64,000 nt of DNA from a virus: IMG/VR virus record IMGVR_UViG_3300024991_000250. One strand, given 5' to 3'. Shown here piece by piece: positions 20,719 through 43,498 of the stretch. The translations under genes were made by a program, and so were the position numbers. The notes beneath the pieces are model-generated. The model made no database searches. It was not told the DNA's origin and was given only the letters and a program-made list of their open reading frames with translations. The stretch's first letter is position 1; every line of letters starts with the position of its first letter.

Positions 20719-22563
20719 TCAGTACCCCGGGTCGTCCGGGTCGCGCTGCGGCGGGGTGTTGGCGTAGCCGGTGCCGGCCAGGCCTTCTTTCAGCTTGATG
20801 TCGGTGTAATAGTAGAAATTGGAACGCTTCTTCTGGAAGCCCAGATCGTTGAGCCGGTCGCCAAAGCTGCGATTGCTGGCCGGCTTGAGCTGGTTGACCT
20901 CGCACCAGCGCAGATAAGCCTTGTAGAGATCGCCGGCCTGCACCTTCATATTGAGCGCAGGATCGACCTTCTCGATGCCGACATCGGCAAACACACCGAC
21001 ATTGTCGCGCTCCTCCCGGTGCTCCTGGGCGAACTGCTTGGCCTCGGACGGCGTATAGTAGTTCAGCCCGTTGCTGAGATACATCACGGCGCCCTCGAGC
21101 AGCCAGTTGAGCACCCCTGCCCGCTCCGCATCGAGCCGCGCCGCCAATTCTGCCGGGTCCATCCGCTCCTCGGTCGGGATATAGACGCCCCAGAGCACGA
21201 ACAGGAAGCGCCGCCAGATGCCTTCATCCTGCCCCGTGATCGCCGGCTTGTTATTGCCGGAGAGCATCGGGGTAAACTTTGGCATGAACTCGAAGAAGTC
21301 CTTGTTGAGGAAACGTGCAAGGATCTTGGTGCCGCCGGTCAGCGCCTTGATCAGCTCCTCCTTGAGCGGCGTGTTTTTCGGCAGCTCTTCGATGGTCACC
21401 AGGCGCGCATTGTGCAGGCGCGCAATGTCGGGATTGGCCTGCTGGCCAGCGCGCTGCCCGTCGCCGGTGATCGATTCCGGCGAGGCGATCTGCCGGTAGC
21501 TGCCGCCGAGGCGGCCGATCAGCTCGAAAAAGGCCGACTTGCCGTTCGCACCCTTGCCATAGTGATAAAACATGACCTGCGCCGCATTGCCGCCGAACAG
21601 CAGCGCCACCGCCGTCGACACCTGAATGAAGGTGCGCCAGTGCTGTTCCGGCTGCACCTTGGCGAGAAAGGTGTCGTGGAAGAATGGCGCCTTGGCGCCC
21701 GGGTCATAGGACACATCGGCCATCTTGGTGATGAGATCGTCGCGATCATGCGGCTCGAAACTATAGCCCCCGATCATGCGCGTGCCGCCCTCCGGCTGGT
21801 CCGGGTCGAGTTCCTTCCAGAAGCGGATCGTGCCGTTCGCGACATTGAACTTCATGTCGTCGGCATCGAGCCGGTCGATCGGCAGGGATTTGAGCGATTG
21901 CGCCTGCTCCAGCATCGCCTTGGTGCGGCCGGCATTGCCCGAGGTTACCGCCCAGGCGATCCGCGACGAGCGGCGCTTGCCCAGGGCCGCCATGACTTCG
22001 GTCGCGGTCTTGATGATCCGCTCCTCGGCCGCGCTGAGATCGTCCTTCTTGCGCAACAGCTCGTCGGCGCGGGCGCAGATCTTCTTCTGCTTTTCGCTGG
22101 CCTCCAGCTCGACGGCCTCGAGCTTGATCTTGTCGACGATCATCTGCGCCAAAAGCCGCACATCGAGGTCTGCCTCGTCCCGCTGCCAATGGGTGCCGCG
22201 CCAATAGAGCCAGCCGAGGCCGGTCACATAGCGCAGGTTTTCGCCGAACCAGGCTACCAGGCGCCGGCCATTGTCGCGATCGTTCTGGTCCAGCCCGGCG
22301 CACCAGCGCGACACGATGCGAGACGCTTCGTCCAGCCCGTCATTGCTGCCGAAATCGTCGGCATCCATGAAATCGGCATCGCTCGGACCAGGGTCGTCGG
22401 CATCAGCCGGCGGCGGACCTTCTTTGGCCTTGGCCTTACGCGCCGGCTTATCGGCCGATGCCGCGCCCTTGCCACCCTCGATAACACCGAGTTTGACAGT
22501 GCGTTTCTTGGCAGCCGCCTTCTTGACGGCATCGGACTTGTCGTCTTCGGTATCGTCAGACAT
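20719..22563 (-). CDS. P4/D5-family SF3 helicase (primase-associated ATPase, 614 aa)
   Basis: D5_N motif NDRDNGRRL, Walker A YGKGANGKS, IKALTGG, NNKP, DEGIWRR, C-terminal winged helix. Confidence 0.93.
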   Translation of the reverse strand: MSDDTEDDKSDAVKKAAAKKRTVKLGVIEGGKGAASADKPARKAKAKEGPPPADADDPGPSDADFMDADDFGSNDGLDEASRIVSRWCAGLDQNDRDNGRRLVAWFGENLRYVTGLGWLYWRGTHWQRDEADLDVRLLAQMIVDKIKLEAVELEASEKQKKICARADELLRKKDDLSAAEERIIKTATEVMAALGKRRSSRIAWAVTSGNAGRTKAMLEQAQSLKSLPIDRLDADDMKFNVANGTIRFWKELDPDQPEGGTRMIGGYSFEPHDRDDLITKMADVSYDPGAKAPFFHDTFLAKVQPEQHWRTFIQVSTAVALLFGGNAAQVMFYHYGKGANGKSAFFELIGRLGGSYRQIASPESITGDGQRAGQQANPDIARLHNARLVTIEELPKNTPLKEELIKALTGGTKILARFLNKDFFEFMPKFTPMLSGNNKPAITGQDEGIWRRFLFVLWGVYIPTEERMDPAELAARLDAERAGVLNWLLEGAVMYLSNGLNYYTPSEAKQFAQEHREERDNVGVFADVGIEKVDPALNMKVQAGDLYKAYLRWCEVNQLKPASNRSFGDRLNDLGFQKKRSNFYYYTDIKLKEGLAGTGYANTPPQRDPDDPGY

Positions 22564-23320
22564 GGAGGCTACATTGCATTGGCGTGAACACTGGAAGGCT
22601 ATCGCAATCTTTGCCGCTTTTACTTGGTTGATCGCCTATATCGTGGTGTGGGTTCACCGATCTAGTTGCGACAGCTTGCAGCAAGCCGCATGTGCAGCCC
22701 GAGCCCTGATGACGGCGGGCGCAGACGTGGTCACCTTTCAATGGGTGTGGGACAATCAGACCCTGGCGGCGGGCATGTTCACTTCCGGGGCCGCAGGGAT
22801 CGCCCTCGTGGTGCTCTTCATTCAGCGCCAGTGGCAAATCGATAGCGAAAAGAAAGCCAAATACGCAGAAGCTCTCAATGCTCTGAATTGGACCAAGATC
22901 CTGCTGCGCTCGATTGCAGATACCGCGGGGCGAAAGGAACGGCAGGCGACAATCGGCGAAATCGACAAGCTTGATGACCATCTGGTCGCACTTGCGACTG
23001 TATCTCCCATGCTCGCAGAGACCGTTAGGGATATGATCCAACGCCTCAAAGCTTACGCAAAAAATCGCGAAGACAGCTTTGCCCTTCCATCTCTCGACGA
23101 CGATTTTGGCTTTGAAGTCGACGGCCTGGAATGGGCATTCGTGATGGCCACCTGTTTCACAGCATTTTTCCGCGAACCGGAAAGACTGCTCGATAGCGAT
23201 GCCAACTTCATATTCAAGCGACAGAAATTCGCGGCAGTAGCTGGCGATCTCACCAACTACCCCAATCTCGCCTTTTGGGAATGGAGGCATGTGCGCGACT
23301 TTTTCGAAATCTGACCTCAC
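22556..23320 (-). CDS. Bridge ORF D (254 aa), antisense to a nested membrane-protein gene
   Basis: GTG overlaps the primase TGA (GTGA); its TGA overlaps the helicase start (ATGTCTGA); the peptide itself is not recognisable. Confidence 0.45.
   Translation of the reverse strand: MRSDFEKVAHMPPFPKGEIGVVGEIASYCREFLSLEYEVGIAIEQSFRFAEKCCETGGHHECPFQAVDFKAKIVVERWKGKAVFAIFCVSFEALDHIPNGLCEHGRYSRKCDQMVIKLVDFADCRLPFLSPRGICNRAQQDLGPIQSIESFCVFGFLFAIDLPLALNEEHHEGDPCGPGSEHARRQGLIVPHPLKGDHVCARRHQGSGCTCGLLQAVATRSVNPHHDIGDQPSKSGKDCDSLPVFTPMQCSLHV
22574..23314 (+). CDS. Nested antisense membrane protein D (two TM segments, ~246 aa)
   Basis: GGAGG 5 nt before TTG 22574 (alternative ATG 22562); hydrophobic segments AIAIFAAFTWLIAYIVVWV and LAAGMFTSGAAGIALVVLFI; AT-richer than flanks. 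Confidence 0.75.
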   Translation: MHWREHWKAIAIFAAFTWLIAYIVVWVHRSSCDSLQQAACAARALMTAGADVVTFQWVWDNQTLAAGMFTSGAAGIALVVLFIQRQWQIDSEKKAKYAEALNALNWTKILLRSIADTAGRKERQATIGEIDKLDDHLVALATVSPMLAETVRDMIQRLKAYAKNREDSFALPSLDDDFGFEVDGLEWAFVMATCFTAFFREPERLLDSDANFIFKRQKFAAVAGDLTNYPNLAFWEWRHVRDFFEI

Positions 23321-24495
23321 AAAATCACCCGTACCAAATCATTGAGGTCTTTGCCGTCGCCAATCGGCTCGACGAATGAGCAGTCCAGCACCGACAGCGC
23401 CGGGTTCTCCTGCAGGCGGCGTTCACGCCAGGCCTGGGCGCGCAGCAGGCCGCGCGTCACCTTTTCCACAGTGCGCTTGTCCGGCTCGTCGCTGTCGCAG
23501 AGATAGACCAGCTCTTCGGCCCAGTCGGGCGGCAAGAAACAGTCCCAATCCGTGAGGTCCGGCAGGCCATGCTGCTGGCGCCCTTCGGCATCGCGGGCGG
23601 CCTTGCCGGCCATATTGCCGAGATCGACCCCGGCCCAATAGGCCGTATCAGCCTCGAAATTGTGGGCCAGCGCGGTCAGCGTGGTTTCGATGCCTTCACC
23701 CATGACGATGCGGCGCGGTCGATCCGGGGTGTAGAGCCTGATCGCTCCGCCCTTCTTGGCCCCGCGCACCTTCTTGGAGGGAATGGCTTTGCCGGTGTCG
23801 GTGTTGTTGCCCGGCACGGCCTTGCCTTTCGGCTGGTCGAGGTCGAGCCAGGTAGCATGGCTGGCGCCGAACCTGTCGTCAGGCTGCTGCACCGCGGCGA
23901 TCATGGCCGGGCCGGTCCATGCCGTTTGCCAGGCCCCGCCCATATGCTCGACCAGCTTCAAATGCGGATGCTCCCAGAGCTTGATCGCATCGATCGGCAC
24001 ATGCCGGCCGATCAGGTCAAAGCCGATGCCGCGCAAGGCGAGATAGCGGCCGAGAGTGTCGCGGCCATGATTGGCCCGGGCCTCGGAGAATATCCGCCAG
24101 CCATCCCGTCGCGCCTCTTCCCGGTAGCGTGCCGCCTCGTCGGCCCGGCGCTGCTCATCCCTGGCATTCTGTTCGGCAATCTGCCGCGCCCGGTCAGGAT
24201 CGAGCGGAGCCGAGGCCTTGCGGCCGGTGACGATCTCGCAGGCCTCGACGAAGCCGACGCTTTCCGTCGCCTCGACCAGCTTGATCACGCCCGACCCGCT
24301 GATGCCGCAACCCCGGCACAAAAAGGTGTTCTTCTTGGTGTGGATGGCAAAGCGATCGGTGCCACCACAGACCGGGCAGGGTCCGGCCCGGTCGATCCCC
24401 GGCGCCAGCTTCCAGCGTCTGCGGATCGCCCAGCTTTCACAGCTGGTCTGCATGGCGTCGTCGCGCAGCGCGATCAGTTCGGGCGATAGGGTCAT
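23317..24495 (-). CDS. Primase: zinc-binding domain plus TOPRIM
   Basis: GPCPVCGGTDRF...CRGC zinc finger; MGEGIET; YLCDSD. Confidence 0.88.
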   Translation of the reverse strand: MTLSPELIALRDDAMQTSCESWAIRRRWKLAPGIDRAGPCPVCGGTDRFAIHTKKNTFLCRGCGISGSGVIKLVEATESVGFVEACEIVTGRKASAPLDPDRARQIAEQNARDEQRRADEAARYREEARRDGWRIFSEARANHGRDTLGRYLALRGIGFDLIGRHVPIDAIKLWEHPHLKLVEHMGGAWQTAWTGPAMIAAVQQPDDRFGASHATWLDLDQPKGKAVPGNNTDTGKAIPSKKVRGAKKGGAIRLYTPDRPRRIVMGEGIETTLTALAHNFEADTAYWAGVDLGNMAGKAARDAEGRQQHGLPDLTDWDCFLPPDWAEELVYLCDSDEPDKRTVEKVTRGLLRAQAWRERRLQENPALSVLDCSFVEPIGDGKDLNDLVRVIL

Positions 24496-24674
24496 CACCG
24501 CCCTCCCCACTTCGACAGACCGGCCATGGCCGCCTTGATATCGGCCATGCAGGCAGAGGCGCCGCGCCCTTCCTCATAGTCGCGGATGATCTTTGCCACG
24601 GCGGCCAGTGCGCGCTTGCGCGATGCCCCCCGGCGCCCGGCCCGCTCCGCCTCGATGCGACCGATATCGCTCAC
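24495..24674 (-). CDS. Hypothetical protein (59 aa, MSDIGRIEAERAG...)
   Basis: GTGA and TGATG overlaps with its neighbours. Confidence 0.55.
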   Translation of the reverse strand: MSDIGRIEAERAGRRGASRKRALAAVAKIIRDYEEGRGASACMADIKAAMAGLSKWGGR

Positions 24675-24889
24675 AAGACTGCCCTCACCTTGGGCTTTGG
24701 CCTGGCCTTGCCCAGCATCCGCTGCAGCGTGCGGCGGTGAATGCCGAGGCGGCGAGCCGTGGCGGAAATGCAGCCGCCTTCGGCCGCCAACGCGGCGCGG
24801 ACATAGTGAAACGCCACTTCATTGGGCGAGAGGTCGAGCAGGTCGATGGCCTGCTGCAGGGCAGCGTGATGGGCATGGGAGACTGTCAC
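24671..24889 (-). CDS. Standalone RegA/PrrA/ActR-like Fis-type HTH protein (72 aa)
   Basis: ISATARRLGIHRRTLQRMLGK matches the RegA-type HTH (SETARRLNMHRRTLQRIL). Confidence 0.75.
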   Translation of the reverse strand: MTVSHAHHAALQQAIDLLDLSPNEVAFHYVRAALAAEGGCISATARRLGIHRRTLQRMLGKARPKPKVRAVL

Positions 24890-25077
24890 GCCGCCACCCC
24901 GCTTCGGCGCGTGGCCAGGTCTAGTTCGTCGGCCGCCACGATATGACCCCGCGCCTTCAAGAAGCCGATCGCATCCTCATAGGCCTCGACCAGCCCATCA
25001 AGCCGCGCCGCCTCGATGCGCGCATCGATCTCGCTGCGCACCGACATGCCGGGAATGGTTTTCATGGGCAGTCTCAT
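24886..25077 (-). CDS. Hypothetical protein (63 aa)
   Basis: ATGA/GTGA coupled at both ends. Confidence 0.55.
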   Translation of the reverse strand: MRLPMKTIPGMSVRSEIDARIEAARLDGLVEAYEDAIGFLKARGHIVAADELDLATRRSGVAA

Positions 25078-25385
25078 CGCTTGCACCACTCTGTGGCGTC
25101 GAACTCGACATAAAGCTCGGCAAACTCACCATCGGGATCATCCTGGACGATGTGAAAGCCGAACCATGGGCAGCCATTTTCGGCATGGTCGAGTGCGTCA
25201 GGGATATTGTCATCCTCGAAACACTCGCAGCCATCACGCATGTGCAAACGATAGGCGTTGAGATAGAAGCCCTCGACCTCGACGACTGCACTTTCACCTA
25301 GGCTCGTGCCACGCATTAGCACCGCCAGCTTCGTGCCTTCTGCGATCTGCGGCTTCTCGCCCGCATGCTTCCATGGCCCGGTCAT
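25074..25385 (-). CDS. Hypothetical protein (103 aa, MTGPWKH...)
   Basis: ATGA coupled at both ends; acidic, Cys/His-containing. Confidence 0.55.
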   Translation of the reverse strand: MTGPWKHAGEKPQIAEGTKLAVLMRGTSLGESAVVEVEGFYLNAYRLHMRDGCECFEDDNIPDALDHAENGCPWFGFHIVQDDPDGEFAELYVEFDATEWCKR

Positions 25386-28021
25386 GCCACTTCTCCCTTC
25401 TCTTCCTGATGTTCGATTTCCATCACGCCGAACAAATCCGGCATGGCCAGCTCGTCTTCCATGGCCTTCACATAGGCGCAGCCATCCACGAAATAGCCGG
25501 GGTTGAGCTCGACGGCCCGGCCGCGCCGCTTCAGTTTCAGCGCGCGATAGGGCACGCTCATGAGCCCCCCGAACGGATCGAAAACTGTCTCGCCCGGCTC
25601 GGAATATTGCGCGATGCAGCGGTCGATGATGTCGAACTGCAGCGGGCAGAGATGCATTTCGCGGCCAGCCTGGGCCTGCAGCGTGTTCATCGACAGCATG
25701 CGGGCCACGTCGGACCACACATCGTCATGCTTGGAATGGGGCGGCAGCAGCATGAAGGTCGAGGGCAGCGAACCGTGCTGCTCGAGCTCTTCGGCAATGG
25801 TCACATGATGTTCGAAGTCATAGACCGCGTTGAGCTGGTAGGCCTTCCAGAGCTTGTAGATGACATTGGCATCGAGGCTGCGCAGCTCGTCGCCGGTCAG
25901 CAGGCGATTGCCCGACACCGGCATATAGCCATGGGCATCGAGCTGCCAGCGTGCGCGGCTATAGCCGTCATTATCGGTCCAGTGCCCTGCCTTCCATTCG
26001 CGCTTGCCCTTGGCCACCGGCTTGTCGGCATAGCCATTGGAATTGTCGGTCGGGGGCTTGCGGAAGATCAGCAGATATTCGGGCAGGCCATTGCCCATGC
26101 GGCTGCCATCCTTGCACTGCTCTGTCCAGCCCAACCGATAGGTCTGGTTGTTCTCCCGCACCACGTCGGTGGTGATGGTCTTGCGACTGAGGAAGGCAAA
26201 GCCATGCTTGGTGAAGGCGCGGATGCAGTCGTCGGAGAAAGGATAGACCGATTGAAAGCCCAGCCCGGTCATGCCACCCGGCACGATGCGATCTTTCACA
26301 TGGATGGCCGCCACCCGCCCCGGCGCCAGCACCCGCAGCAGCTGCGGGATCAGGTAATCCATCTGGGCCCAGAAGTGGCCATTGTCGTCGGTATGGCCGA
26401 AATCGGCATAGTTGGGGCTATATTCGTACTGGGTCGAGAACGGGATCGAGGTGACGATCAGATCGACCGCGTTTTCCGCCATGCCGGCGCATTCGGGCAC
26501 GCAGTCGTTGTTGACCAGCACATAGCTATCCCCGCGAACCTCCACCCGCTCCACGCCCATCGCCCTGGTCAGGCTCTGCGCCATGGCCGCCGAGGTCAGC
26601 CCATATTCCTTGATGATTGAGGTCATGATCGCCACCTGCTCGTTATGGCGGCGCCATTTCGCTTCCAGGCTGTCGCGCACGGGACGTTCGGCCTCGGTAT
26701 AGATGAGGTCGACGCGCACGGTTTGCGTCTGCAGGAATCGGTAGCACCGATGAATGGCTTGGATCAGGTCGTTAAATTTGAACCCGATCCCGAGAAAGAT
26801 TTCCCAGGCGCAATGCCGTTGGAAATTGCTGCCAGAGCCGAGCATGCTGGGCTTGCCGGCCAGCTCGGCCCGGCGCCCATCGGCAAAGTCGGCCAACAGG
26901 GTTTCGCGGGCGTCGAGGTCCTGGCTGCCATAGACCGTGGCAATGCCGGGAATGGCCGCCTCGATGGCGTGCCGCTCCGCCTCGAGATCATGCCAGATGA
27001 TCCGGTGCGCCTTCGGGTCGATGGCGCGCAACTCCAGCATCTTGGCGATGCGGATGGAAAGGCTGTCGCGCTTTTCGCGTGCCGCATCGCTGAGGCTGGC
27101 CGCCGCATTGCGCAAGAGGCGCCCCTGCCCGCTTTTCTCCACCCCGGCCGATGCATGATCGGCCGGCAATTCGTGCCAATGCACCTCGAGCGGCGGCAGG
27201 TCATAGCCTGCGTCGGAAAAACCGAGATCGCTGGGTTTCTGCACGAACAGGCCCCAGCTGGCCACCCACAGCCAGAACTCTTCCTGCTTGTGCGGGTGGA
27301 TGGTGAGGCTGTCGGCCTTCTCGCTATTGCGCTTGAAGAACCGCGTCTTGGCCTGGCCGACATCCATGACTTCGAGGAAGGCCGAATAGGCCAGGAGCTC
27401 GATATATTCGTTCGGGCTCGGCGTGGCCGTGGCGACGAATTTGAACCGCACCCCGTCGAACAGCCGCATGAATTCGCGGAAGGTCTTGGTCCCGCCAAAA
27501 CCGCGCAATACCGAAGCCTCGTCGAGGCTGGTGGCGGTAAAACCGCGCGGATCGAGCTTGCCGTCACGCACCGTCTCGTAATTGGCGATATAGAGCTGGC
27601 CATCGGCCGTGCCTTCGATGCCCCGGATAAAGCGCAGGTTGGGCACCCGCTCCGGCCGCCCATCCGCCCAGGCGCGCAATTCTGCCCGCTGCGCATCGCT
27701 CACCGCCGGGTGCTCGCCTGTCGCCAGCGCCCGCGCATCGGCCAAAAATTCGCGGCGCACACCCAAGGGCGCCACCACCAGGCCCTTGCCGCCAAAACGG
27801 GCGACGACAATGCGCAGGATTTCCAGCTGCACAAAGGTCTTGCCCAGCCCGAAGGCCGCGAACAGCGCCCGCCGCCCGCCCAGGCAGGCCCATTTGACCA
27901 TGGCCTTCTGGTGCGGGCTCAGCAGCGGATTGATCTCATCGTTCTCGACGATGAAACCCGAAACCGGCGCCCTGGCCACCTTGGCGGCAAGAAAATCTTC
28001 GTAGCGGAGGGGCATATTCAT
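25382..28021 (-). CDS. SNF2-like helicase fused to an amino (N4/N6) DNA methyltransferase (879 aa)
   Basis: GLGKT Walker A, LDEAS, TATPSPN, QAIHRCYRF helicase motifs; TSIPF (motif IV variant) and FDPFGG (motif I). Confidence 0.88.
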   Translation of the reverse strand: MNMPLRYEDFLAAKVARAPVSGFIVENDEINPLLSPHQKAMVKWACLGGRRALFAAFGLGKTFVQLEILRIVVARFGGKGLVVAPLGVRREFLADARALATGEHPAVSDAQRAELRAWADGRPERVPNLRFIRGIEGTADGQLYIANYETVRDGKLDPRGFTATSLDEASVLRGFGGTKTFREFMRLFDGVRFKFVATATPSPNEYIELLAYSAFLEVMDVGQAKTRFFKRNSEKADSLTIHPHKQEEFWLWVASWGLFVQKPSDLGFSDAGYDLPPLEVHWHELPADHASAGVEKSGQGRLLRNAAASLSDAAREKRDSLSIRIAKMLELRAIDPKAHRIIWHDLEAERHAIEAAIPGIATVYGSQDLDARETLLADFADGRRAELAGKPSMLGSGSNFQRHCAWEIFLGIGFKFNDLIQAIHRCYRFLQTQTVRVDLIYTEAERPVRDSLEAKWRRHNEQVAIMTSIIKEYGLTSAAMAQSLTRAMGVERVEVRGDSYVLVNNDCVPECAGMAENAVDLIVTSIPFSTQYEYSPNYADFGHTDDNGHFWAQMDYLIPQLLRVLAPGRVAAIHVKDRIVPGGMTGLGFQSVYPFSDDCIRAFTKHGFAFLSRKTITTDVVRENNQTYRLGWTEQCKDGSRMGNGLPEYLLIFRKPPTDNSNGYADKPVAKGKREWKAGHWTDNDGYSRARWQLDAHGYMPVSGNRLLTGDELRSLDANVIYKLWKAYQLNAVYDFEHHVTIAEELEQHGSLPSTFMLLPPHSKHDDVWSDVARMLSMNTLQAQAGREMHLCPLQFDIIDRCIAQYSEPGETVFDPFGGLMSVPYRALKLKRRGRAVELNPGYFVDGCAYVKAMEDELAMPDLFGVMEIEHQEEKGEVA

Positions 28022-28902
28022 GCTGCCGTCTCCATTGACGAAGACGCCGTATCGCAGCGAGTGTGTGCAATCAGCTGGGGGGTGCTGCTTTGAAGCCGAG
28101 GATTTTTGGCCTGCGAATAGAGCGCAGCGCTCTCTACCTTATGTTCTTCGCCTGCGGAATTCTTGGAGGCATAGCCATTATTGCTTTTGCTCCGGGCGCG
28201 CCTTGGAGCACGAACATTGAACCGACTGGCGCCACAACCGCCGAGGCTCTGGACCTGGCCACCCAACGCAGCATGGCTGCCTCTGCCTGGTGGATGGTCG
28301 TTGCAAGTGCCGCTGCGGCAGCCGTCGGACTGGCAACATTGGTGCTTGTCGCCAATACGCTCAATGAGGCCAGGCGAAGCGCAGACGCCGCAAGAGACGC
28401 GGTTAAGGCCACGCTCACCGTGGGCAAAAAACAAACCCGAGCCTATCTGGTGGTCGAGAATGCTAACCTGATCGCGACTGACCTCTTGCCTAGCCTCACA
28501 TTCACAGTCGATGTTCGAAATACAGGTCAGTCGCCCGCGCAAAAGGTGCGAGCCCGTGGGACGCTTAAGATAGTGAAAACCAGCACAAATGCCGAAGGCG
28601 AAGTCGCAGAAACGATAAGACTTTCGATGGAAGGCAGCATGCAAATGCCAGACATTTCGGCCGCACAATCTATGCCATTTTCCTTCGGCGAATTGTACCT
28701 CAACGACGATCCTGGTCTGCATGAGCGACTGGACGATATTTTTCTCACGGCGAAGGCAAACATCTGGATCGATTACGAAGATGTTTTTGGTGACGAAGAT
28801 ACCGTAGAAGTCCGGTTTTCCGGAGGCATCCGGACACCTGAACACACCCGCCAGGGCGTCAAACTCAAACCCGTTGTGTAGCTCTCCCTGTGCAGCACTC
28901 AT
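28018..28902 (-). CDS. Bridge ORF C (294 aa, MSAAQGEL...METAA), antisense to a nested membrane-protein gene
   Basis: ATGA overlaps at both ends; carries the GGAG SD of the methyltransferase. Confidence 0.45.
   Translation of the reverse strand: MSAAQGELHNGFEFDALAGVFRCPDASGKPDFYGIFVTKNIFVIDPDVCLRREKNIVQSLMQTRIVVEVQFAEGKWHRLCGRNVWHLHAAFHRKSYRFCDFAFGICAGFHYLKRPTGSHLLRGRLTCISNIDCECEARQEVSRDQVSILDHQIGSGLFFAHGERGLNRVSCGVCASPGLIERIGDKHQCCQSDGCRSGTCNDHPPGRGSHAALGGQVQSLGGCGASRFNVRAPRRARSKSNNGYASKNSAGEEHKVESAALYSQAKNPRLQSSTPQLIAHTRCDTASSSMETAA
28090..28881 (+). CDS. Nested antisense membrane protein C (~263 aa)
   Basis: GGGGG before TTG 28090 (alternative GTG 28063); two hydrophobic segments followed by an Ig-like 'RAYLVV...VRNTGQSPA' domain. 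Confidence 0.8.
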   Translation: MKPRIFGLRIERSALYLMFFACGILGGIAIIAFAPGAPWSTNIEPTGATTAEALDLATQRSMAASAWWMVVASAAAAAVGLATLVLVANTLNEARRSADAARDAVKATLTVGKKQTRAYLVVENANLIATDLLPSLTFTVDVRNTGQSPAQKVRARGTLKIVKTSTNAEGEVAETIRLSMEGSMQMPDISAAQSMPFSFGELYLNDDPGLHERLDDIFLTAKANIWIDYEDVFGDEDTVEVRFSGGIRTPEHTRQGVKLKPVV

Positions 28903-29138
28903 CGCCCCACCTCGATCGGCACGATCCTGCGATTGTGAAAATCCCTTCCGCCATCGGTGACGGTCACGAGCCGCTTGAACTGCTCGATGGCCCTTTCCAG
29001 CTGCTCGACCTGGCCCAGATCGTAATCGGCCAGCACCAGGCTGCCCTCGTTCTCGACCAGGAGGCGATGATCGCCGGAGGGGTCGAGCTGCGCGCGCGGA
29101 TGGATGGACGGCGAATGATATTGCGGGGCGCGTCTCAT
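28899..29138 (-). CDS. Hypothetical protein (79 aa)
   Basis: ATGA coupled at both ends. Confidence 0.6.
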   Translation of the reverse strand: MRRAPQYHSPSIHPRAQLDPSGDHRLLVENEGSLVLADYDLGQVEQLERAIEQFKRLVTVTDGGRDFHNRRIVPIEVGR

Positions 29139-30271
29139 GCCTCGCCCCCGAAGCGCTTCTGGTTGGCGAGCATGCGGGCGGCATTGGTCAGGCCGAGCCG
29201 ATTGGCCCAGCCGGCAATCGTGCCATGCGGATGGCCGAGGTCTTGCGCCATCAGCACCAGCGGCACTTCGGCCGCATAGCCGGCGCGCATCGCCGCCTCC
29301 GCCTCTTTCATGCTCAGCTTGCCCTTGCGCGCCGCCAATAGGGCCACTTCACCCTCATAGGCCTCTCGCAGGGCGAGCTTAGCCGCGAAATCGGGTGCGG
29401 ATGGCGGCTGCTCCACCATAGCTTCAACATGCCCGCCATCCGCTGCGGCGTCCGGTGAAGGTGCCGCGCTCTGTTCAGCCGCTTCCGGCAGAATTGGTGA
29501 GACGTTTTCAGTCACTACGGTTAGCCTGCGGCCGTCTCGGGCCTGATCCTGTTCCTCGCCACCATCCAGCGCCCGCAGCGCCGCCATGGCGAGGCTCCCC
29601 ATCGCCTCGATGGCTTCCTTGGTGAAATCCACCGTGTCGCCATCGCGCTCGAGAATGCCGGTGAATTCGCCCAGCTTGAGAATGGCCTCGCTGCCGACCC
29701 GGTCGCTGGCCATGCACAGGGCAATCACCGAAAACGCGAACTGATGCCATTTGCGGGGCGGCAGCGGCTCCAGCGCCTTGGCCTCGGCAACCGGCTTGAC
29801 CACTTTCGGCTTGGGCGGGCTGACCACTGGCGCCTCGGCCGCAAGGATCTTCTCGCGCGTGTCGCTGACAGCGCTTTCGAATGTCTCATCATCCAGCGCC
29901 GCCGCCTTTTGCGCGCGGCTGGAGAGTTTCTTGTCGACACCGATATCGGCCAGGGTGAAGGGCGTATTGTCGAAAACCGGTTCCGCCTCGGCACCGGTTT
30001 CGGGCTCGCTCACATTCGAGCGCTCCGCCGACGGCCGCCCGCCCTGGCTCATCAGCCCATCATCCTTGGCGGCGCGCAGCATGATGCCCAGCTTGCGTTC
30101 GGCGCGCGCCACGATTTCGGCGGCGTCGGCCTGCAACTTGCGGTCCCGGGCAATGCGGGCATAGGCCTTGGCCTGTTCGGCGGCGCTATGGATGCGCGTC
30201 ACCTCGTCGAAGCGCACGGCAGCGGCCAACGCTTCCTTGGCATGCTCATAGACAGCGAGCTGCTGGGTCAT
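29135..30271 (-). CDS. Phage protein with C-terminal GcrA-like HTH (378 aa)
   Basis: Helical N-terminus AYARIARDRKLQADAAEI..RAERKLG; C-terminal MAQDLGHPHGTIAGWANRLGL. Confidence 0.6.
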   Translation of the reverse strand: MTQQLAVYEHAKEALAAAVRFDEVTRIHSAAEQAKAYARIARDRKLQADAAEIVARAERKLGIMLRAAKDDGLMSQGGRPSAERSNVSEPETGAEAEPVFDNTPFTLADIGVDKKLSSRAQKAAALDDETFESAVSDTREKILAAEAPVVSPPKPKVVKPVAEAKALEPLPPRKWHQFAFSVIALCMASDRVGSEAILKLGEFTGILERDGDTVDFTKEAIEAMGSLAMAALRALDGGEEQDQARDGRRLTVVTENVSPILPEAAEQSAAPSPDAAADGGHVEAMVEQPPSAPDFAAKLALREAYEGEVALLAARKGKLSMKEAEAAMRAGYAAEVPLVLMAQDLGHPHGTIAGWANRLGLTNAARMLANQKRFGGEA

Positions 30272-30567
30272 GCCGGCTCTCCCACCGTGTCGAGGTGGTG
30301 GGTGAAGAGGGCGACATCGTCGGACTGATCAACAAGCGGGCGAAACCAGACGCAGTTGAACAAGCACTCGCCATAGCCATCGATAGCTGAAGAATACGGT
30401 TCGTTGATGATTTCTGCGAAGGTTAAACCAGTGCCTCCGGACACCGTTTCGACAGTGCGGACCGTCAAAACCTGCCCATACCCCGGCACCTTTTCGCCAG
30501 GAGAAGAGCCCCAGCCACCATCTTTGACGCACACGCACTTTGCCCCCGGCCGCGCCCAGCTGCTCAT
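30268..30567 (-). CDS. Hypothetical protein (99 aa, CAP-Gly/SH3-like 'PGAKCVCV...GQVLTVR')
   Basis: ATGA coupled at both ends. Confidence 0.6.
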   Translation of the reverse strand: MSSWARPGAKCVCVKDGGWGSSPGEKVPGYGQVLTVRTVETVSGGTGLTFAEIINEPYSSAIDGYGECLFNCVWFRPLVDQSDDVALFTHHLDTVGEPA

Positions 30568-30764
30568 TGCGCATCTCCCGACTGGAGAGCGGCGATCTTC
30601 TCGCGCAAAGCCGTCTTGAGCTCGCCCATGGGCAGGTGCCCAAAGCCACGCAGCACCAGACCTTCGAGGACTGCGGTAAAGTTGAGGCTTTTGCCTGCAC
30701 CCCAAATCTCCCGCGCCACCGCGTCGATCGCTATCGACAGCGCGATATTCCCGCCCGTACTCAT
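30564..30764 (-). CDS. Hypothetical protein (66 aa)
   Basis: ATGA coupled at both ends. Confidence 0.6.
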   Translation of the reverse strand: MSTGGNIALSIAIDAVAREIWGAGKSLNFTAVLEGLVLRGFGHLPMGELKTALREKIAALQSGDAQ

Positions 30765-31243
30765 TCCAACCCCTCCACGCTGGCCTGCACCTGGAAGCGC
30801 AGCGCCATGAGCTTGATGATGGCTTCTTCGATTTCACCCTCGACGCGCGCGGCATCGGCGGCGCAGAGCCGGCCGTCGCCCCAGCCTTCGGCCAGCGCCA
30901 CGAACACATCGGACGTTTCCTTGAGCGCCCTGGCGGTGATCGCCCCCAGCGCCGTGCCGGATTTGACCACGCTCGGCTCCGGCACCAGCAGGTGCCCGCT
31001 GAGCTTGGCCAGCGCCCGTGTCAGCACCGGCTGGCCGCATTCGCTTTCGAGATCGGCAATCACATCGGCGGGCATGAAGCGCTCGCCATCGTCGGGCTGC
31101 GCCGAACCATAGCGGCCGATATTCTGGTGCCCGCCCCGCGTCACGGCCGAGGCGGCCACGGCGCCGCCGGCATGGGTCACCAGCTGGCGCGTGGCGGCCT
31201 TGAGCGCGGCATAATCGTTGGCGGGCAGCTGGCGGCCGGTCAT
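30761..31243 (-). CDS. Phage regulatory CII-like protein (160 aa)
   Basis: LKAATRQLV...GG...FMPADVIADLE...PVLTRALA motif; downstream of cro. Confidence 0.7.
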   Translation of the reverse strand: MTGRQLPANDYAALKAATRQLVTHAGGAVAASAVTRGGHQNIGRYGSAQPDDGERFMPADVIADLESECGQPVLTRALAKLSGHLLVPEPSVVKSGTALGAITARALKETSDVFVALAEGWGDGRLCAADAARVEGEIEEAIIKLMALRFQVQASVEGLE

Positions 31244-31596
31244 GGCGCAGCCCGCCCGAACTCTGCGCCGTGACAAACTGCGGCGAAAGCCGCAAACCCA
31301 TTGCGACCAGCCGGAGAAGACAGGTGACCCGACGCTTTCCCGATTACCGCCCCAGCACTGCCCTGCGCCAGGCCATCGCGGCGCTGCGAGAGGCGCGCGA
31401 AAAGCGCCGGACAGCGGAAACGGCGCGTCAATCCGCTCCACCGTCCGGCCAAGTTCAGGGAGGCCCCGACCTCACCACAACGCCGGGGCGGGAGGACACC
31501 GAAACGGCCCTTAGGCCCGATCCGCACCATTGCGAACCGATCCCTCGTTTCGATGCCCTCTCGTCCAGACGCAAGCAAGATGATTGATCCGCTCAT
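31240..31596 (-). CDS. Bridge ORF B (118 aa)
   Basis: ATGA overlaps at both ends; peptide not recognisable. Confidence 0.4.
   Translation of the reverse strand: MSGSIILLASGREGIETRDRFAMVRIGPKGRFGVLPPRRCGEVGASLNLAGRWSGLTRRFRCPALFARLSQRRDGLAQGSAGAVIGKASGHLSSPAGRNGFAAFAAVCHGAEFGRAAP
31324..31587 (+). CDS. Nested antisense small protein B (87 aa)
   Basis: GGAGA before GTG 31324; helical stretch TALRQAIAALREAREKRR. Confidence 0.4.
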   Translation: MTRRFPDYRPSTALRQAIAALREAREKRRTAETARQSAPPSGQVQGGPDLTTTPGREDTETALRPDPHHCEPIPRFDALSSRRKQDD

Positions 31597-31757
31597 GCTG
31601 GCCGCCGCACGATCTGGCCCTTGCGGGCCCTGGCGCCATGGCCGACGCCACCCAGGCGCACCAGCTCGCGATAGCCGACACCCTGCCGGCCCATATGGCG
31701 CAGCGCATCGGCCAGGGCGGCCCGCTCGGCTTTGCTCATATTGCGCGGGGCGGTCAT
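31593..31757 (-). CDS. Hypothetical protein (54 aa, MTAPRNMSKAERAALADALRHM...)
   Basis: Not in the ORF track; SD GGGGGAG; ATGA overlaps at both ends. Confidence 0.6.
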   Translation of the reverse strand: MTAPRNMSKAERAALADALRHMGRQGVGYRELVRLGGVGHGARARKGQIVRRPA

Positions 31758-32344
31758 TCGACTCTCCCCCGCAAAACCGCTCTGATGCGGGCGAAGAACC
31801 CACGGAGAATCACATGCACGCTGCGAACAGTGACACCCAGACCGAACTGGTTGCCGAACAGACGGCGACCATGATCCTGGCCGACGCCATTATCGACCTG
31901 GCAACCGGCCTCGCCGAAAACACCGATGACCCCCGCATGGTCGATGCCGTGGTGGGCGCCGTTCATGACGCGATTGAGCGGGCGAGCGCTTCCTTCGTTT
32001 TTCCCGGCCAGGCGCCTCTGGAGCGCGCCGATGAAGAACGAGCCCTCGTTATGGCCCGGAACCGCGCCCGGGTCATTGCTGAGATGATCAAGCAGGCGTG
32101 CGAAAGTCGACTGACTGCGAAGATGGGTCCGAAGCACTGATGGTCGGCGATCGAGACCATTCGCCCGGCGCCATTGCAGATAGGCATCATGCAGAGCCGC
32201 GGCCTCCGCATGCATCGACAGCATGGGACGGAACACTGGCGCATGATCGAACGCACCGGGATGCAGAAATCGAGCCCGGCGCTTCGCTGCGATACGCCCA
32301 TAGCTGCCAGCCAACCGCGCCAGGAACATGCGGAACGCGCTCAT
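31754..32344 (-). CDS. Bridge ORF A (196 aa)
   Basis: ATG overlaps the cro TGA; TGA overlaps the next ATG; the N-terminal third may be a genuine small phage protein. Confidence 0.5.
   Translation of the reverse strand: MSAFRMFLARLAGSYGRIAAKRRARFLHPGAFDHAPVFRPMLSMHAEAAALHDAYLQWRRANGLDRRPSVLRTHLRSQSTFARLLDHLSNDPGAVPGHNEGSFFIGALQRRLAGKNEGSARPLNRVMNGAHHGIDHAGVIGVFGEAGCQVDNGVGQDHGRRLFGNQFGLGVTVRSVHVILRGFFARIRAVLRGRVE
31814..32140 (+). CDS. Nested antisense helical protein A (108 aa)
   Basis: GGAGA 5 nt before ATG 31814; amphipathic helical sequence MILADAIIDLATGLAEN...VVGAVHDAIERA. Confidence 0.65.
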   Translation: MHAANSDTQTELVAEQTATMILADAIIDLATGLAENTDDPRMVDAVVGAVHDAIERASASFVFPGQAPLERADEERALVMARNRARVIAEMIKQACESRLTAKMGPKH

Positions 32345-32568
32345 GGCTGGGCCTCGAGCGCTGCGGGCGCGGGCCCATACACGTCCGGCCTGAGGATGTA
32401 GCGCGACACGCCAGTAAGGCGCTCGACTTCAAGGCATCGCTCCGCAGGGATCTTGCGCCGACCATTTTCCCAACGGCTCCACATTGCCGCCGTAACACCA
32501 ATAGCCCTTGCAGCACTTTCGACACCGTGCCGCGACTTCTCTCGCCAATCTTTAAGGGGACTGTTCAT
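32341..32568 (-). CDS. cro: Cro-like XRE HTH regulator (75 aa)
   Basis: SAARAIGVTAAMWSRWENGRRKIP; divergent from the repressor. Confidence 0.85.
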   Translation of the reverse strand: MNSPLKDWREKSRHGVESAARAIGVTAAMWSRWENGRRKIPAERCLEVERLTGVSRYILRPDVYGPAPAALEAQP

Positions 32569-32648: not shown

Positions 32649-32664
32649 ATGATAGAAGTTGCAA

Positions 32665-32985
32665 ATGGTTGAGCGAATTCATCCCAGAACACCACCACGC
32701 ATTTTCATCCGCGAATGGATGGAAAGAGTGCCCGGGCTTGACCAAAAGCGGCTGGCCGAACGAATGGGTAGAACTCCGGGAGCCATCTCCAAGAAGTTAA
32801 ACTCGCCCGGCAAAATCGATACCGAATGGCTCGCTGAGTTCGCCGATGCTCTCGGAGTGCAGGTGCCCGACCTCTTCCGCGATCCAATGGCACCAACTCC
32901 CGCCGACTTGCTCAAAGGTTTGTCGGACGAGCAGCGTAACGAAGTCCTGCATTTTGCTGACTTTGTACGAAGGCGCGCTAGCTAA
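32665..32985 (+). CDS. cI: CI-like XRE repressor lacking an S24 peptidase domain (~106 aa)
   Basis: IREWMERVPGLDQKRLAERMGRTPGAISKKL HTH; divergent from cro across the operators. Confidence 0.82.
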   Translation: MVERIHPRTPPRIFIREWMERVPGLDQKRLAERMGRTPGAISKKLNSPGKIDTEWLAEFADALGVQVPDLFRDPMAPTPADLLKGLSDEQRNEVLHFADFVRRRAS

Positions 32986-33045: not shown

Positions 33046-33600
33046 ATGTCTTGGCTTAATATTCTCGCTTGCACATCGTTATGCGCGATCGCACTATCCG
33101 CTTGCGCCTCAACATCTTCTACACCTCAGCATAAGGCCCCTCCACCGATATCGGAGGGAGAAGTGTCGGCCAGCGGCTTTATCACAACTAGGCATCCCGA
33201 CGGCTCTGGCGGCCTCCGGCTAGCATCTGACAGCGGAGGCAATGGATGGTCTGTCGACTGTCGAAAAGACGCCATGACAGACCGCCGAACCTGTCAGTTT
33301 TCCAATCGAGGAATTTTTGTATACTACGGCGTATCTTCTACCCCTCAAGAAATTTGCGCTTTTGGGCACAGCTTTCCCGGCCGCATTGCTCAAATTAGGA
33401 TCGACAGCAATGCGCCCGTTTCCACCAACGGAGATGGCTGCGCCCCTGCGTCCAAGCTGCTTGCTCAGATGACGGGAGCCAACCAGGTCACTACTCGCGT
33501 CTACACTTGGCCCTACGATTACCCGGTCGACAAGGTGTTCACACTGGCTGGTTTTAAGGAAGCGATCGCTCTAGCCGATGACCTGAGAAAGCTGCCATAA
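33046..33600 (+). CDS. Lipoprotein, superinfection-exclusion candidate (184 aa)
   Basis: Lipobox LSAC at residue 20; follows cI in the immunity region. Confidence 0.75.
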   Translation: MSWLNILACTSLCAIALSACASTSSTPQHKAPPPISEGEVSASGFITTRHPDGSGGLRLASDSGGNGWSVDCRKDAMTDRRTCQFSNRGIFVYYGVSSTPQEICAFGHSFPGRIAQIRIDSNAPVSTNGDGCAPASKLLAQMTGANQVTTRVYTWPYDYPVDKVFTLAGFKEAIALADDLRKLP

Positions 33601-40869: not shown

Positions 40870-41293
40870 GGGATGCGCGATAGATATTGACCAGCTCGAG
40901 CACGGCAAAGGCCGGATAGATCGCAAGCCAGGTAGTGACGACGCCCGAAGCCGCGAAGGCGAAGGTCCAGCCCACGAACAGCAGAAAACCGCCACCGGCC
41001 GAGACTTGGCGAATGCGCGGCGTGACGTGACGCCGGGCCCCATTGATGATCAGCCCGACAATGCGCATGAGGCCGATGAGCACCATGAACCAGCCGAGCA
41101 GGTTTTCGTCTCCGAAAATGGCCCGGAACCCGGCCCATGCGGGCTGGTCGAAGGTTTCGTCGGGCAGGAGCAGGACCATGCCAAGCGCCAGGGTCACGAA
41201 GGCCAGAAACCATTCCGGGATGCGAGGGCCGAATCGGTGGGTGATTTGCACCCACAGACCCGGCCCCGCATATGGCGCTTGGCCGCCGGTCAT
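40838..41293 (-). CDS. Multi-pass membrane protein, holin-like (151 aa)
   Basis: 3-4 hydrophobic segments; lysis operon. Confidence 0.55.
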   Translation of the reverse strand: MTGGQAPYAGPGLWVQITHRFGPRIPEWFLAFVTLALGMVLLLPDETFDQPAWAGFRAIFGDENLLGWFMVLIGLMRIVGLIINGARRHVTPRIRQVSAGGGFLLFVGWTFAFAASGVVTTWLAIYPAFAVLELVNIYRASHDAGESRGTS

Positions 41294-41799
41294 TTCGCCC
41301 GGCCGATCAGCGTGTCGCCATTCGGCAGGACAACCGGCAGCTTCGGCGTCAGCAGGCGATCGAGCGCCGCCTTGCCGGCTGCTGTCGCCGGATCGATGCC
41401 GAACGTCTGCAGAGCTTCAGGAACAGAGCTTTCGACATAGCCCCTGGCCGTCGAGAGGATGGCTTGCGAAATGACGTTGCCGGGCACCCAGCCCGCCTTC
41501 TGCAAGGCATAAAGCACACCATTCATCAGCGCCGATTGCAGCGCCTCACGGTGGCGAGCCTCGATGTCGATGCCGGTCTTGGCCTTGAGCATGGCCACGC
41601 CCCAGCCCACCAGCGCTGTAATGAAAAGGCCAAAGGCCGGAACCAGGGCCGTGACCACCTGCTGGATCATCGTCAGCTCGGACGTGACCGTGACGAGCCC
41701 ATCCTGCGCAAAGGCCGCCACCGGCGCCAGCATGACCGCGCCGATGACGAGGCCGAACATGAGGGCAGCGAACATCGCCGCCTGCTTGAGCAGTCGCAT
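41290..41799 (-). CDS. Membrane protein, holin-like (169 aa)
   Basis: AGGAG SD; two hydrophobic segments; IDIEARHREALQSAL motif; follows the endolysin. Confidence 0.55.
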   Translation of the reverse strand: MRLLKQAAMFAALMFGLVIGAVMLAPVAAFAQDGLVTVTSELTMIQQVVTALVPAFGLFITALVGWGVAMLKAKTGIDIEARHREALQSALMNGVLYALQKAGWVPGNVISQAILSTARGYVESSVPEALQTFGIDPATAAGKAALDRLLTPKLPVVLPNGDTLIGRAK

Positions 41800-41888
41800 T
41801 GTAGTCTCCTGTGATGTTGAGAGGGGTGACACTTCAGTTTTGCGGCCAGAACGACCGCACACTTCAATCGACCTTCGCGGTCGGTAGG

Positions 41889-42674
41889 CTATGCAGCCAG
41901 CTGGCCGAGCGGATCGGCCGGTACGCTGAAGCAGGGGCAGGCCTTGGCGGCATATTCGTTGTGGCCGCTGATGCGGCGGACGCCCTTGTGCCTGGCCACA
42001 AGCTCGCGGACCAACCACAGCAGCGAAGCCTGCTGCGCAGCCGTGCGGGTATCCTTGGCCGCCTTGCCATCGGCCGAGGTGCCGCCGATATAGCAAATGC
42101 CGATCGTGCCGGTATTGCGGCCGGCGACATGGCTGCCCACCTGGCCCACCGGCCGGCCAAGCATCACCCGACCGTCGCGATAGACGACATAGTGATAGCC
42201 GATATCGCTCCAGCCGCGCTGCTTATGCCAGGCGCGGATATCGGCGACGGTGAAATCCTTGCCTTCCGGCGTCGCCGCGCAGTGGAGGATGATTTCAGAG
42301 ATCGGTCGGGCCGTAACCAGCAGCTGCAGCGTCATTGCATTGGGCGGCAGGTCGCCGCCGTGCGGCCAGGCCGGCACAGCGTTCGGGTCAGGCTGAACGG
42401 CTGCCGGCGCCTTCCCCATGGCCGCCTTGTCCGGCTCTGCCCGGCCCGGCTTGGCCGCCTCGGCCGCACGCTTGAGCGCGGTCATGGTCTGCGGCCCGGC
42501 TTTGCCATCGACGATGAGGCCAAGCCGCTGCTGCGCCGCGCGCACCGCCTTGTCGGTTTCCCGGCCGAAATGGCCATCGACGGCAATGGGCGGGTCGCCG
42601 GATACCTGGTTGATGAGGATCTGCAGAGCGCGCACGGCAGCGCCCCGCGCCTCGAGCTTGAGGAGCGTGGTCAA
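41889..42674 (-). CDS. Endolysin: PG-binding domain plus amidase_2 (261 aa)
   Basis: DGHFGRET..AV..AQ...GL.VDGKAG; IILHCAAT, DIGYHY, GHNEY, KACP. Confidence 0.93.
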   Translation of the reverse strand: MTTLLKLEARGAAVRALQILINQVSGDPPIAVDGHFGRETDKAVRAAQQRLGLIVDGKAGPQTMTALKRAAEAAKPGRAEPDKAAMGKAPAAVQPDPNAVPAWPHGGDLPPNAMTLQLLVTARPISEIILHCAATPEGKDFTVADIRAWHKQRGWSDIGYHYVVYRDGRVMLGRPVGQVGSHVAGRNTGTIGICYIGGTSADGKAAKDTRTAAQQASLLWLVRELVARHKGVRRISGHNEYAAKACPCFSVPADPLGQLAA

Positions 42675-42782
42675 AAGATTTCTCCAATTTTACGTTTTAG
42701 AAGGTCACCTATCGGCGGCGTTTTTGGCGCTGGCACACAAACTGGATAAGTTCGTGCATCTCAGCATCACTGGGCTCGAAGC

Positions 42783-43163
42783 TCATCGTTGCGCAGGCAT
42801 CGAGGACCGCAGCACGAATGCTTGTCCCTTCGAGATTTTCGCAATCGTATCGAAGAGCCCGCTCGGATACTTCGCGAAGATGCATGCGGCGCACATAGTA
42901 TCCCGCCACTGACGAGCCCGGCGCTTGGGCCCGAACACGAACGGCAGGATGCCAACGGTCGAAACAACGAACAGCGCCGGCAGGGCCAGCCACCAGAGCC
43001 CGGCGTCCCAGACGCAGTGAGCGAAGGCGACATTGGCCTGGTCGAAGATGGACCAGTCCGTGGTGTCGAACAGGGTCACATCGTGGATATCGCAGCAGTG
43101 GCGGATCGAGATGCCGGCGATGATGTCAGGGATGCCGGTGCAGCCGTCCATTGCGGTCAACAT
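42783..43163 (-). CDS. Phospholipase A2-like protein (126 aa)
   Basis: DGCT...HCCDIHD motif followed by a hydrophobic segment. Confidence 0.5.
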   Translation of the reverse strand: MLTAMDGCTGIPDIIAGISIRHCCDIHDVTLFDTTDWSIFDQANVAFAHCVWDAGLWWLALPALFVVSTVGILPFVFGPKRRARQWRDTMCAACIFAKYPSGLFDTIAKISKGQAFVLRSSMPAQR

Positions 43164-43498
43164 GGGCTACTCGACTCTTTGCAAGCACAATGCAAATAAT
43201 CGGAAGCAAAATAGCCTTTGAGGGACGCTATGCCATCAAAACTGATCTTCGTTATTATGCTTTCTGCATCACTTCTGGGGTGCGCCCACAATAAAAACCA
43301 GCAAGTCATGGTGTCACCGCCTGACAAGGTATGCACCGACCCCATCACAGATTGCCCGGTGGTTACCGGAAATGGGGCGGCCGGCAAGTCGACCCAGGCC
43401 ACGACGCCTCCAGACAAATACTGCTCCGACCCAATCACAAACTGCCCAGACGTGAAGAGCACGAAACCAACGAAGCAGTAAGCGCAGCTCAGCATCAC
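43157..43498 (-). CDS. Bridge ORF E (113 aa), antisense to a nested lipoprotein
   Basis: GTG/ATG overlaps the TGA of 43495-44007; its TGA overlaps the next start (ATGTTGA). Confidence 0.4.
   Translation of the reverse strand: MMLSCAYCFVGFVLFTSGQFVIGSEQYLSGGVVAWVDLPAAPFPVTTGQSVMGSVHTLSGGDTMTCWFLLWAHPRSDAESIITKISFDGIASLKGYFASDYLHCACKESSSPC
43230..43481 (+). CDS. Nested antisense lipoprotein E with duplicated Cys motif (83 aa)
   Basis: GAGGGA SD; lipobox LLGC; PPDKVCTDPITDCP and PPDKYCSDPITNCP. Confidence 0.75.
   Translation: MPSKLIFVIMLSASLLGCAHNKNQQVMVSPPDKVCTDPITDCPVVTGNGAAGKSTQATTPPDKYCSDPITNCPDVKSTKPTKQ

Follow-up and report, generated by a model that had tools for sequence, protein, structure and literature searches.

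The nested eta and kil genes of satellite phage P4 are said to have been described by Forti et al. in 1999 (J Bacteriol 181:5225). They provide a point of comparison for the subject of this study: a set of genes that lie backwards within the lytic operons of the virus record IMGVR_UViG_3300024991_000250, analyzed here as a single stretch of 64,000 nucleotides (the window), and the stop-free open reading frames (ORFs) that bridge these genes on the operon strand. According to one summary, P4 eta is coupled to its upstream gene, and its translation prevents termination (PMC10111431). In the two bridges that we designate C and D, and in seven of eight loci of the family to which gene C belongs, there is a 4-nucleotide (nt) overlap between the start codon and the upstream stop, a coupling of the P4 eta/kil type. 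In P4 the act of translation is what matters; the purged stops and unconstrained peptide of the present sequences would fit such a role. The P4 case concerns a same-strand immunity region in which an RNA-based terminator is crossed and the Eta and Kil proteins are active, whereas the bridges described here run antisense through promoter-bearing, protein-coding cargo and their peptides are unconstrained. An E. coli-type scan for intrinsic terminators found none above chance in the bridged region.

In the B3-like Pseudomonas phage Fc02, gene 10 lies opposite olg1/olg2, and both ORFs were reported to give exclusion phenotypes (PMC9936078). There, too, an accessory gene is fully antisense to an early lytic-operon ORF; in Fc02 it is expressed in the lysogen, lies just after a cro/ner-type gene and is tied to superinfection exclusion. 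Fc02 is a case of dual coding, with no argument about purged stops or filler, whereas here a test gave no sign of selection on the bridge peptide. P4 eta is the closest documented mechanism, and Fc02 gene 10 opposite olg1 the closest documented arrangement. A third relevant concept, due to Hendrix and Juhala, is that of the morons of temperate phages, which in their classical form come with a terminator and are free to interrupt translation of the host operon. Like morons, C and D are variably present between conserved phage genes, have an atypical composition and a candidate promoter of their own, and are presumably expressed from the prophage. Unlike morons, they have no plus-strand terminator-like site downstream that scores above chance in an E. 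coli-type scan, and the opposite strand stays translatable. Finally, shadow ORFs and antisense overlapping genes (PMC3454372; for E. coli O157, PMC9927249) likewise include long in-register ORFs opposite real genes. Shadow ORFs are a consequence of codon usage, whereas the open frames of C and D go far beyond that expectation and are tied to operon context and junction geometry. In the literature that we searched, we found no description of stop-purged filler frames across antisense phage cargo, nor of a force on codon usage that comes from operon translation on the opposite strand.

On the evidence of the sequences, we consider it probable that, for C, D and their relatives, selection keeps ribosomes on the operon mRNA across backward cargo, through coupling and against polarity. 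The operon frame in register with the cargo is kept free of stops; it begins on the stop of the upstream gene and ends at or beside the start codon of the gene that follows. What is selected would be translation itself: ribosomes arriving from the upstream gene would re-initiate, cross 250–740 filler codons and deliver termination–reinitiation coupling to the next gene, which is the methylase gene after C and a helicase gene lacking a Shine–Dalgarno (SD) sequence after D. The translated mRNA would thereby avoid a long naked stretch exposed to Rho-dependent termination or decay. As for the backward orientation, it would allow the cargo to be expressed in the lysogen and to be overrun by operon transcription after induction. 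We infer coupling rather than a product from the 4-nt overlaps, the helicase start without an SD and the unconstrained peptide.

Bridge C (28018..28902, minus strand) consists of 294 stop-free codons, beginning in an ATGA shared with the stop of a gene for 79 amino acids (aa) and ending in an ATGA shared with the ATG of the methylase gene. The gene nested within it (28090..28881, plus strand) encodes 263 aa; its start is probably the TTG at 28090, and gene callers chose the ATG at 28141. Bridge D (22556..23320, minus strand; 254 stop-free codons) begins in a GTGA shared with the primase stop, and at its downstream junction, ATGTCTGA, the bridge stop lies 5 nt inside the helicase gene. No SD precedes the helicase start (duplex energy +0.9). 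Nested gene D (22562..23314, plus strand) encodes 250 aa comprising two membrane helices and a helical domain; the letters CATG are common to its ATG and the helicase start. The public gene calls for both C and D are plus-strand ORFs, D being represented by a 246-aa protein. All five bridges (A–E) proposed in the first-pass annotation are present with the coordinates and junction motifs given there, and we could confirm that A–D are in codon register with their nested genes and that E is in another register.

An antisense ORF by itself is meaningless in this genome, since ordinary genes of the window have a G+C content at third codon positions (GC3) of ~0.8 and their in-register antisense frames stay open for hundreds of codons. 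Antisense frames of 416–523 codons face the high-GC3 helicase and methylase genes. In-register antisense stops correspond to the sense codons TTA, CTA and TCA, so that chance could be assessed by resampling the synonymous codons of each nested gene with the phage's own codon usage, of either the low-GC3 or the mid-GC3 class. By GC3, low-GC3 usage is the match for C and D (0.58 and 0.62) and mid-GC3 usage for A and B. Under low-GC3 usage, 5–8 antisense stops are expected in C and D and none is seen; the probability of having no stop is <0.0005 for C and 0.001 for D. The corresponding values for A, B and E are 0.08, 0.12 and 0.20 with low-GC3 usage and 0.53, 0.53 and 0.42 with mid-GC3 usage. Two bridges, C and D, are significant within the window; A, B and E are at chance level and need no selection. 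The earlier view that all five bridges are meaningful can therefore be kept for C and D (P ~0.001 or less under low-GC3 usage) and has to be given up for A, B and E (P 0.2–0.5). It had been supported by the argument that frame preservation in all five would occur by chance at about (1/3)^5, which misses the main point: the improbable feature is the absence of stops, not the frame.

Codon counts bear this out. Other low-GC3 genes of this phage have the three codons at 16/363, 5/184 and 7/226, whereas neither C (0/263) nor D (0/250) has any. Homologues of three operon genes, spanning the GC range, served for calibration and gave 2.0–2.3 TTA+CTA+TCA per 100 codons at GC3 0.55–0.65. A-ending codons as such are not avoided, accounting for 23–25% of the other four-fold families in C and D (23% in C alone), and the rare ATA and AGA are included. 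When C, its two closest homologues and D are pooled, CTA is used 0/70 times, TCA 0/28 and TTA 0/22. The caveat, raised at the outset, that in-register antisense ORFs arise easily at high GC is thus inapplicable to C and D.

The strength of the case for C and D comes from homologues. The C family comprises 4057 representative sequences at E≤0.001, and we recovered the DNA of 15 members: 11 are nested, on the strand opposite the flanking phage operon genes, two are on short contigs and two are not embedded. Among the 13 nested or short-contig members there are 0 in-register antisense stops in 3406 codons, where 56 are expected; operon-strand stops in homologous inserts, named beforehand as the finding that would count against the idea, were absent from every nested C homologue examined. 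At least four unrelated sets of flanking genes occur, one of them a Mu-like late operon. The two members outside such operons do carry antisense stops. One is chromosomal, beside an ABC ATPase and a response regulator (L170; loci are denoted by L and a number), and has 10, with 6.1 expected; the other, not embedded in an opposite-strand operon (L172), has 2. Codon identity at identical residues within the family is 0.36 versus a null of 0.35. Synonymous sites are thus saturated, which implies that each lineage keeps the frame open independently.

Junction geometry could be followed at eight C-family loci. Upstream, the overlap is 4 nt in seven of them and 1 nt in the eighth; downstream, it is 4 nt in five and 16–17 nt in two, and one locus has a 44-nt gap. 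One bridge has a 4-nt overlap at each end (L174), another overlaps by 4 nt upstream and leaves a 4-nt gap downstream (L173), and one cassette is crossed by two chained bridges (L175). In the most extended case (L169, JAESGQ010000020.1, 2896–5112), one stop-free frame of 738 codons starts with a GTGA on the stop of a 134-aa operon gene and ends with an ATGA on a 92-aa gene. It crosses three in-register plus-strand genes, encoding a C homologue, a D homologue and a 142-aa membrane protein, with 0 antisense stops in 637 codons. The D homologue (L169:3829–4551) is 25% identical to nested D (E 2e-12). Thus, C and D fill two separate slots of one operon in the window, and their homologues adjoin in L169. 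By eye, the 92-aa gene of this locus resembles an excisionase/AlpA-type helix-turn-helix (HTH) protein; it has no Pfam match.

Nine aligned C cassettes share two short elements. TTGACG (28035..28040, plus strand) is invariant. It falls within the 3′ end of bridge C, at a distance of 14 nt from the methylase ATG, and is a candidate −35 box of the cassette's own promoter that matches the alphaproteobacterial −35 consensus. Read on the minus strand, the same stretch gives GGAG-N-ATGA for the methylase gene. The second element is a conserved G-run (GGGGGG, 28077..28082, plus strand) that forms an SD-like element of nested C. A promoter scan with an E. coli-type consensus found nothing above chance.

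Several comparisons show what else can occupy the slots. In sister prophages (L110, L081, L001 and L003), same-strand methylase genes take the C slot, and the primase gene directly adjoins the helicase gene. A ~96%-identical relative (run X15) has 1213 other letters in place of exactly 28023–28898, and 289 in place of 22498–23325. On a further contig (X16), the 79-aa gene is joined to the methylase gene with 5 letters between, which suggests an empty C slot. Elsewhere (L163), the methylase gene is 88% identical, and the neighboring C allele just 33%. Because of these replacements, the X16 junction, the divergence of the L163 allele and the contents of the sister prophages, the C and D slots are exchange points, and the bridge behaves as an ordinary operon gene. 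The D exchange segment (22498–23325) takes in the first 22 helicase codons, which hold two TTGAC(A/G) boxes facing gene D.

Which other explanations could account for these frames? True dual coding, in which the bridge ORFs would encode functional lytic-growth proteins as claimed for Fc02 gene 10 opposite olg1, is suggested by the length of the frames, by their persistence in evolution, by a coupling like that of ordinary operon genes and by the exclusion activity of the Fc02 lytic-operon gene that fully overlaps a lysogen-expressed opposite-strand gene (PMC9936078). We nonetheless regard it as unlikely. In 45 pairwise C-family comparisons, the identity of the bridge peptides equals a null of the nested protein plus random synonymous codons (mean z 0.37). 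The nested frame, in contrast, is conserved: the C protein and its L161 homologue are 48% identical (204 bits), with 30% (67 bits) for the bridge reading. There is therefore no two-frame protein selection. Since their conservation is no higher than the nested protein forces, the bridge amino-acid sequence is not under selection and the peptides are filler, as had been proposed on first reading. In addition, they are rich in Cys, His and Arg, as is usual for antisense translations, they have no Pfam or PHROG matches, and the L169 frame spans three unrelated cargo genes together with their spacers. Chance and composition, by which at 62% GC an in-register antisense frame is often open and overlapping junctions are easily found, deserve attention given the long antisense frames opposite the helicase and methylase genes, the 835 double-open segments of at least 200 codons that we counted in 102 loci, and bridges A, B and E, which are open at P 0.2–0.5. 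For A, B and E, chance is still the best account. For C and D it is refuted by a GC3 of 0.58–0.62 with A-ending codons in normal use and none of the three stop-complement codons, by the empty family count against 56 expected stops, by a calibration that reproduces the overall number in our survey (1103 stops seen versus 1195 expected over all ORFs), and by the 10 stops of the non-nested L170. As a general explanation of the bridges, chance is extremely improbable.

A frame inherited from an ancestral operon gene that either received the cargo as an in-frame insertion or had it arise on its antisense strand by overprinting would account for a junction ATG and TGA that coincide with ordinary gene boundaries. 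It also fits the same-strand methylase genes in the C slot of sister phages and the relative with another segment in exactly that slot. With synonymous sites saturated, though, such a relic would have gained ~4–6 stops per lineage. Moreover, the bridge peptides match no sister-phage gene; the cassette end (TTGACG, GGAG, ATG) is conserved beside unrelated downstream genes; and the cargo gene did not originate on the bridge, given that a family member outside operons (L170) has antisense stops. Inheritance is, in our view, very unlikely. The remaining alternative accepts that translation is selected and assigns it another purpose: ribosomes might strip sense–antisense duplexes (RNase III) or keep them from forming, shield the mRNA against decay or ease the passage of polymerase through head-on transcription. 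It draws on the same sequence evidence as the coupling explanation, and a conserved candidate cargo promoter facing the operon means that duplex RNA and polymerase collisions are to be expected. The sequence gives nothing to tell the two apart, except that precise 4-nt overlaps at both ends favor re-initiation coupling; we see this alternative as a minor, if credible, possibility.

Certain observations weigh against selection for coupled translation as we propose it. If mid-GC3 usage is applied, the window-only probability of no stop rises to 0.10 for C and 0.16 for D. The GGAG SD at the end of the C cassette serves the downstream gene, so coupling after C may not be strictly required, and it is a C-family member (L167) that has the 44-nt gap after its bridge. 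The bridge RNA lacks the C-rich, G-poor signature of a strong Rho site, as far as C/G skew, an uninformative proxy, can reveal it. Finally, many opposite-strand genes in related prophages are unbridged, and in a crude survey, stops occur at their normal rate in most low-GC3 ORFs of the opposite strand. A clear example is a called 287-aa gene between minus-strand phage genes (L165:1474–2337, plus strand), which has six in-register antisense stops and spacers of 283 and 59 nt. Taken together with the stops in most ORFs of our survey, this gene contradicts the initial suggestion that cargo is accepted only if the lytic strand stays translatable. The bridging constraint is conditional, not universal.

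We asked how far bridging extends beyond the C family. Among loci fetched only via the methylase gene, we found eight further low-GC3 ORFs for membrane proteins that lie opposite the operon and leave an in-register frame of 200–491 codons free of stops (L058, L062, L114, L006, L054, L064, L082 and L096). None of the eight matches the C or D profiles. The first four have 4-nt overlaps, or nearly so, at both ends. In L082 (14278–15750), a 491-codon segment with GC3 of 0.51–0.57 is open on both strands in register. In L064, two adjacent opposite-strand ORFs (12664–13299 and 13389–14204) follow right after the methylase gene and have zero antisense stops. These L082 and L064 segments look like further bridged cassettes of other protein families. 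The survey itself yielded five zero-stop ORFs opposite the operon strand versus 0.56 expected, and one versus 0.77 in the same comparison on the other strand. The excess is thus confined to the strand opposite the operon, in a survey that is crude: GC3 rules served to assign the flank strands, the class given to at least two window rows was wrong, and only in-register bridges were covered. We also tried surveying the gaps between same-strand genes and set this aside as too ambiguous without proper gene calls.

The nested genes, at least C, D, B and E, are real. This conclusion follows from the gene calls for C and D, the better plus-strand conservation of C and B, the family and fold of C, and the signal peptide and SD of E. 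It agrees with the first-pass description of nested genes having SD-like sequences and protein-like features, to which the GGAG SDs of A and B also conform. The ten nested and bridge proteins gave no significant match in PHROGs, Pfam, PADLOC or NCBIfam. A gene caller that used amino-acid composition and had high-GC3 genes as its training set told nested and bridge ORFs apart only weakly, and we did not trust it for strand.

From sequence we judge it probable that C and D are defence- or exclusion-type accessory cassettes of a temperate alphaproteobacterial phage, each with its own candidate promoter and SD. The structural model of C (predicted local distance difference test score 88) has two membrane helices, a long helix and a β-sandwich. 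Its fold is similar to those of DUF4352 and of the 'SMODS-associating 2TM beta-strand rich effector', the latter being an AFDB cluster name (Foldseek E 1e-7, TM-score 0.46). C shares with the SMODS-associated effector two N-terminal transmembrane (TM) helices followed by a β-rich domain. As for C being such an effector, there is no match in Pfam or PADLOC at E≤0.01–0.1, and its neighbors are replication genes, with no cyclase nearby. Among named Atlas clusters, D comes closest to the retron Ec48 membrane effector, with a score of 0.83, below the 0.9 threshold for a lead, so that it serves as a lead only. The two have in common a pair of TM helices, which D combines with its helical domain; D has no Pfam match, and there is no reverse transcriptase or retron nearby. 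Scans of viral contigs with C and D as single proteins returned no match, and nested D has no close relative in a set of 5.8 billion proteins.

The three bridges at chance level can be described briefly. Bridge A (31754..32344, minus strand; 196 codons, ATGA/ATGA) immediately follows cro and is not significant alone. Nested gene A (31814..32140, plus strand) encodes 108 aa and has a GGAG SD; no useful homologues were found, the viral-contig scan giving just one 28-residue match. The first 68 codons of bridge A (32141–32344), coupled directly to cro, face no nested gene and could be a small real gene, for which composition is uninformative. Bridge B (31240..31596, minus strand; 118 codons, ATGA/ATGA) encloses a gene of 87 aa from the GTG at 31324 (31324..31587, plus strand), or of 105 aa from 31270, again with a GGAG SD. 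The arrangement is retained in L081 and L110, where the nested B protein is 49% and 43% identical; the bridge B reading is 40% identical, in L081 only. Bridge E (43157..43498, minus strand; 113 codons, GTGA/ATGTTGA) belongs to the late operon and is out of register. Its nested gene (43230..43481, plus strand) encodes an 83-aa lipoprotein with the lipobox LLGC, a GAGGGA SD and a duplicated PPDKxCxDPITxCP motif. A viral-contig scan found no relatives of it. Nested E sits a few genes before the amidase endolysin gene (41889–42674).

The window represents a 46,758-bp phage genome wrapped on itself. All comparable positions (17,242/17,242) are identical at that period (1–17242 versus 46759–64000), which means that the genome is circular or terminally redundant, or that it is present as a tandem copy. 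Its GC content is ~62%, it comes from bioreactor/wastewater metagenomes, and its nearest relatives are Devosia prophages. All lytic genes are on the minus strand. The early/replication operon (20719..32568, minus strand) runs from the Cro-type HTH gene (32341–32568) through a CII-like gene, the 79-aa gene (28899..29138), the 879-aa methylase gene with an N6_N4_Mtase domain (25382–28021) and the primase gene with a zinc ribbon and DUF7146 (23317–24510) to the D5-type helicase gene with D5_N/Pox_D5 (20719–22563), the HTH/Cro, methylase, primase and helicase assignments being based on Pfam. The 79-aa gene precedes the C slot and has conserved counterparts in L110, L001, L003, L081, L161 and L163. 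A greedy ORF walk from the cro stop recovered the unbroken chain from cro to helicase that had been noticed earlier: 18 minus-strand ORFs with 17 of 17 junctions overlapping, mostly as ATGA. The statement that every opposite-strand gene in the lytic operons is bridged proved equally sound, as those of the 46,758-bp genome contain no such gene besides A–E and their remaining low-GC3 stretches are same-strand genes. Just downstream of a repressor-like HTH gene (32659–32985), a 184-aa low-GC3 ORF (33046–33600, plus strand) has a lipoprotein-like N-terminus (…ALSACAS) and no Pfam match; it is probably a lysogen-expressed accessory gene.

In a broader form, to which our sequence evidence lends about even chances, these elements would be widespread promoter-bearing membrane-protein cassettes adapted to sit backwards in phage operons. 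They would come with a built-in bridge, composed of a stop-free filler frame, coupling-compatible ends and an SD for the next gene, so that cargo could be swapped between unrelated operons without polar damage. Uninterrupted operon translation would then constrain the synonymous codons of opposite-strand genes. If continuity of translation is indeed selected, long, 'implausible' ORFs opposite accessory genes in GC-rich phages would be functional reading frames that do not code for protein, and not artefacts; annotation pipelines delete such antisense bridge ORFs. If this is true, the synonymous codon choice of a gene would be dictated by the readability of the opposite strand, and phage engineers would have a rule by which to insert reversed cargo without polar effects. 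Since most of the sampled members with enough flanking DNA are antisense in phage operons (11 of 13), a large, uncharacterized membrane-protein family with two TM helices and a β-sandwich (~4000 representatives) becomes a source of candidates for prophage-encoded defence or exclusion.

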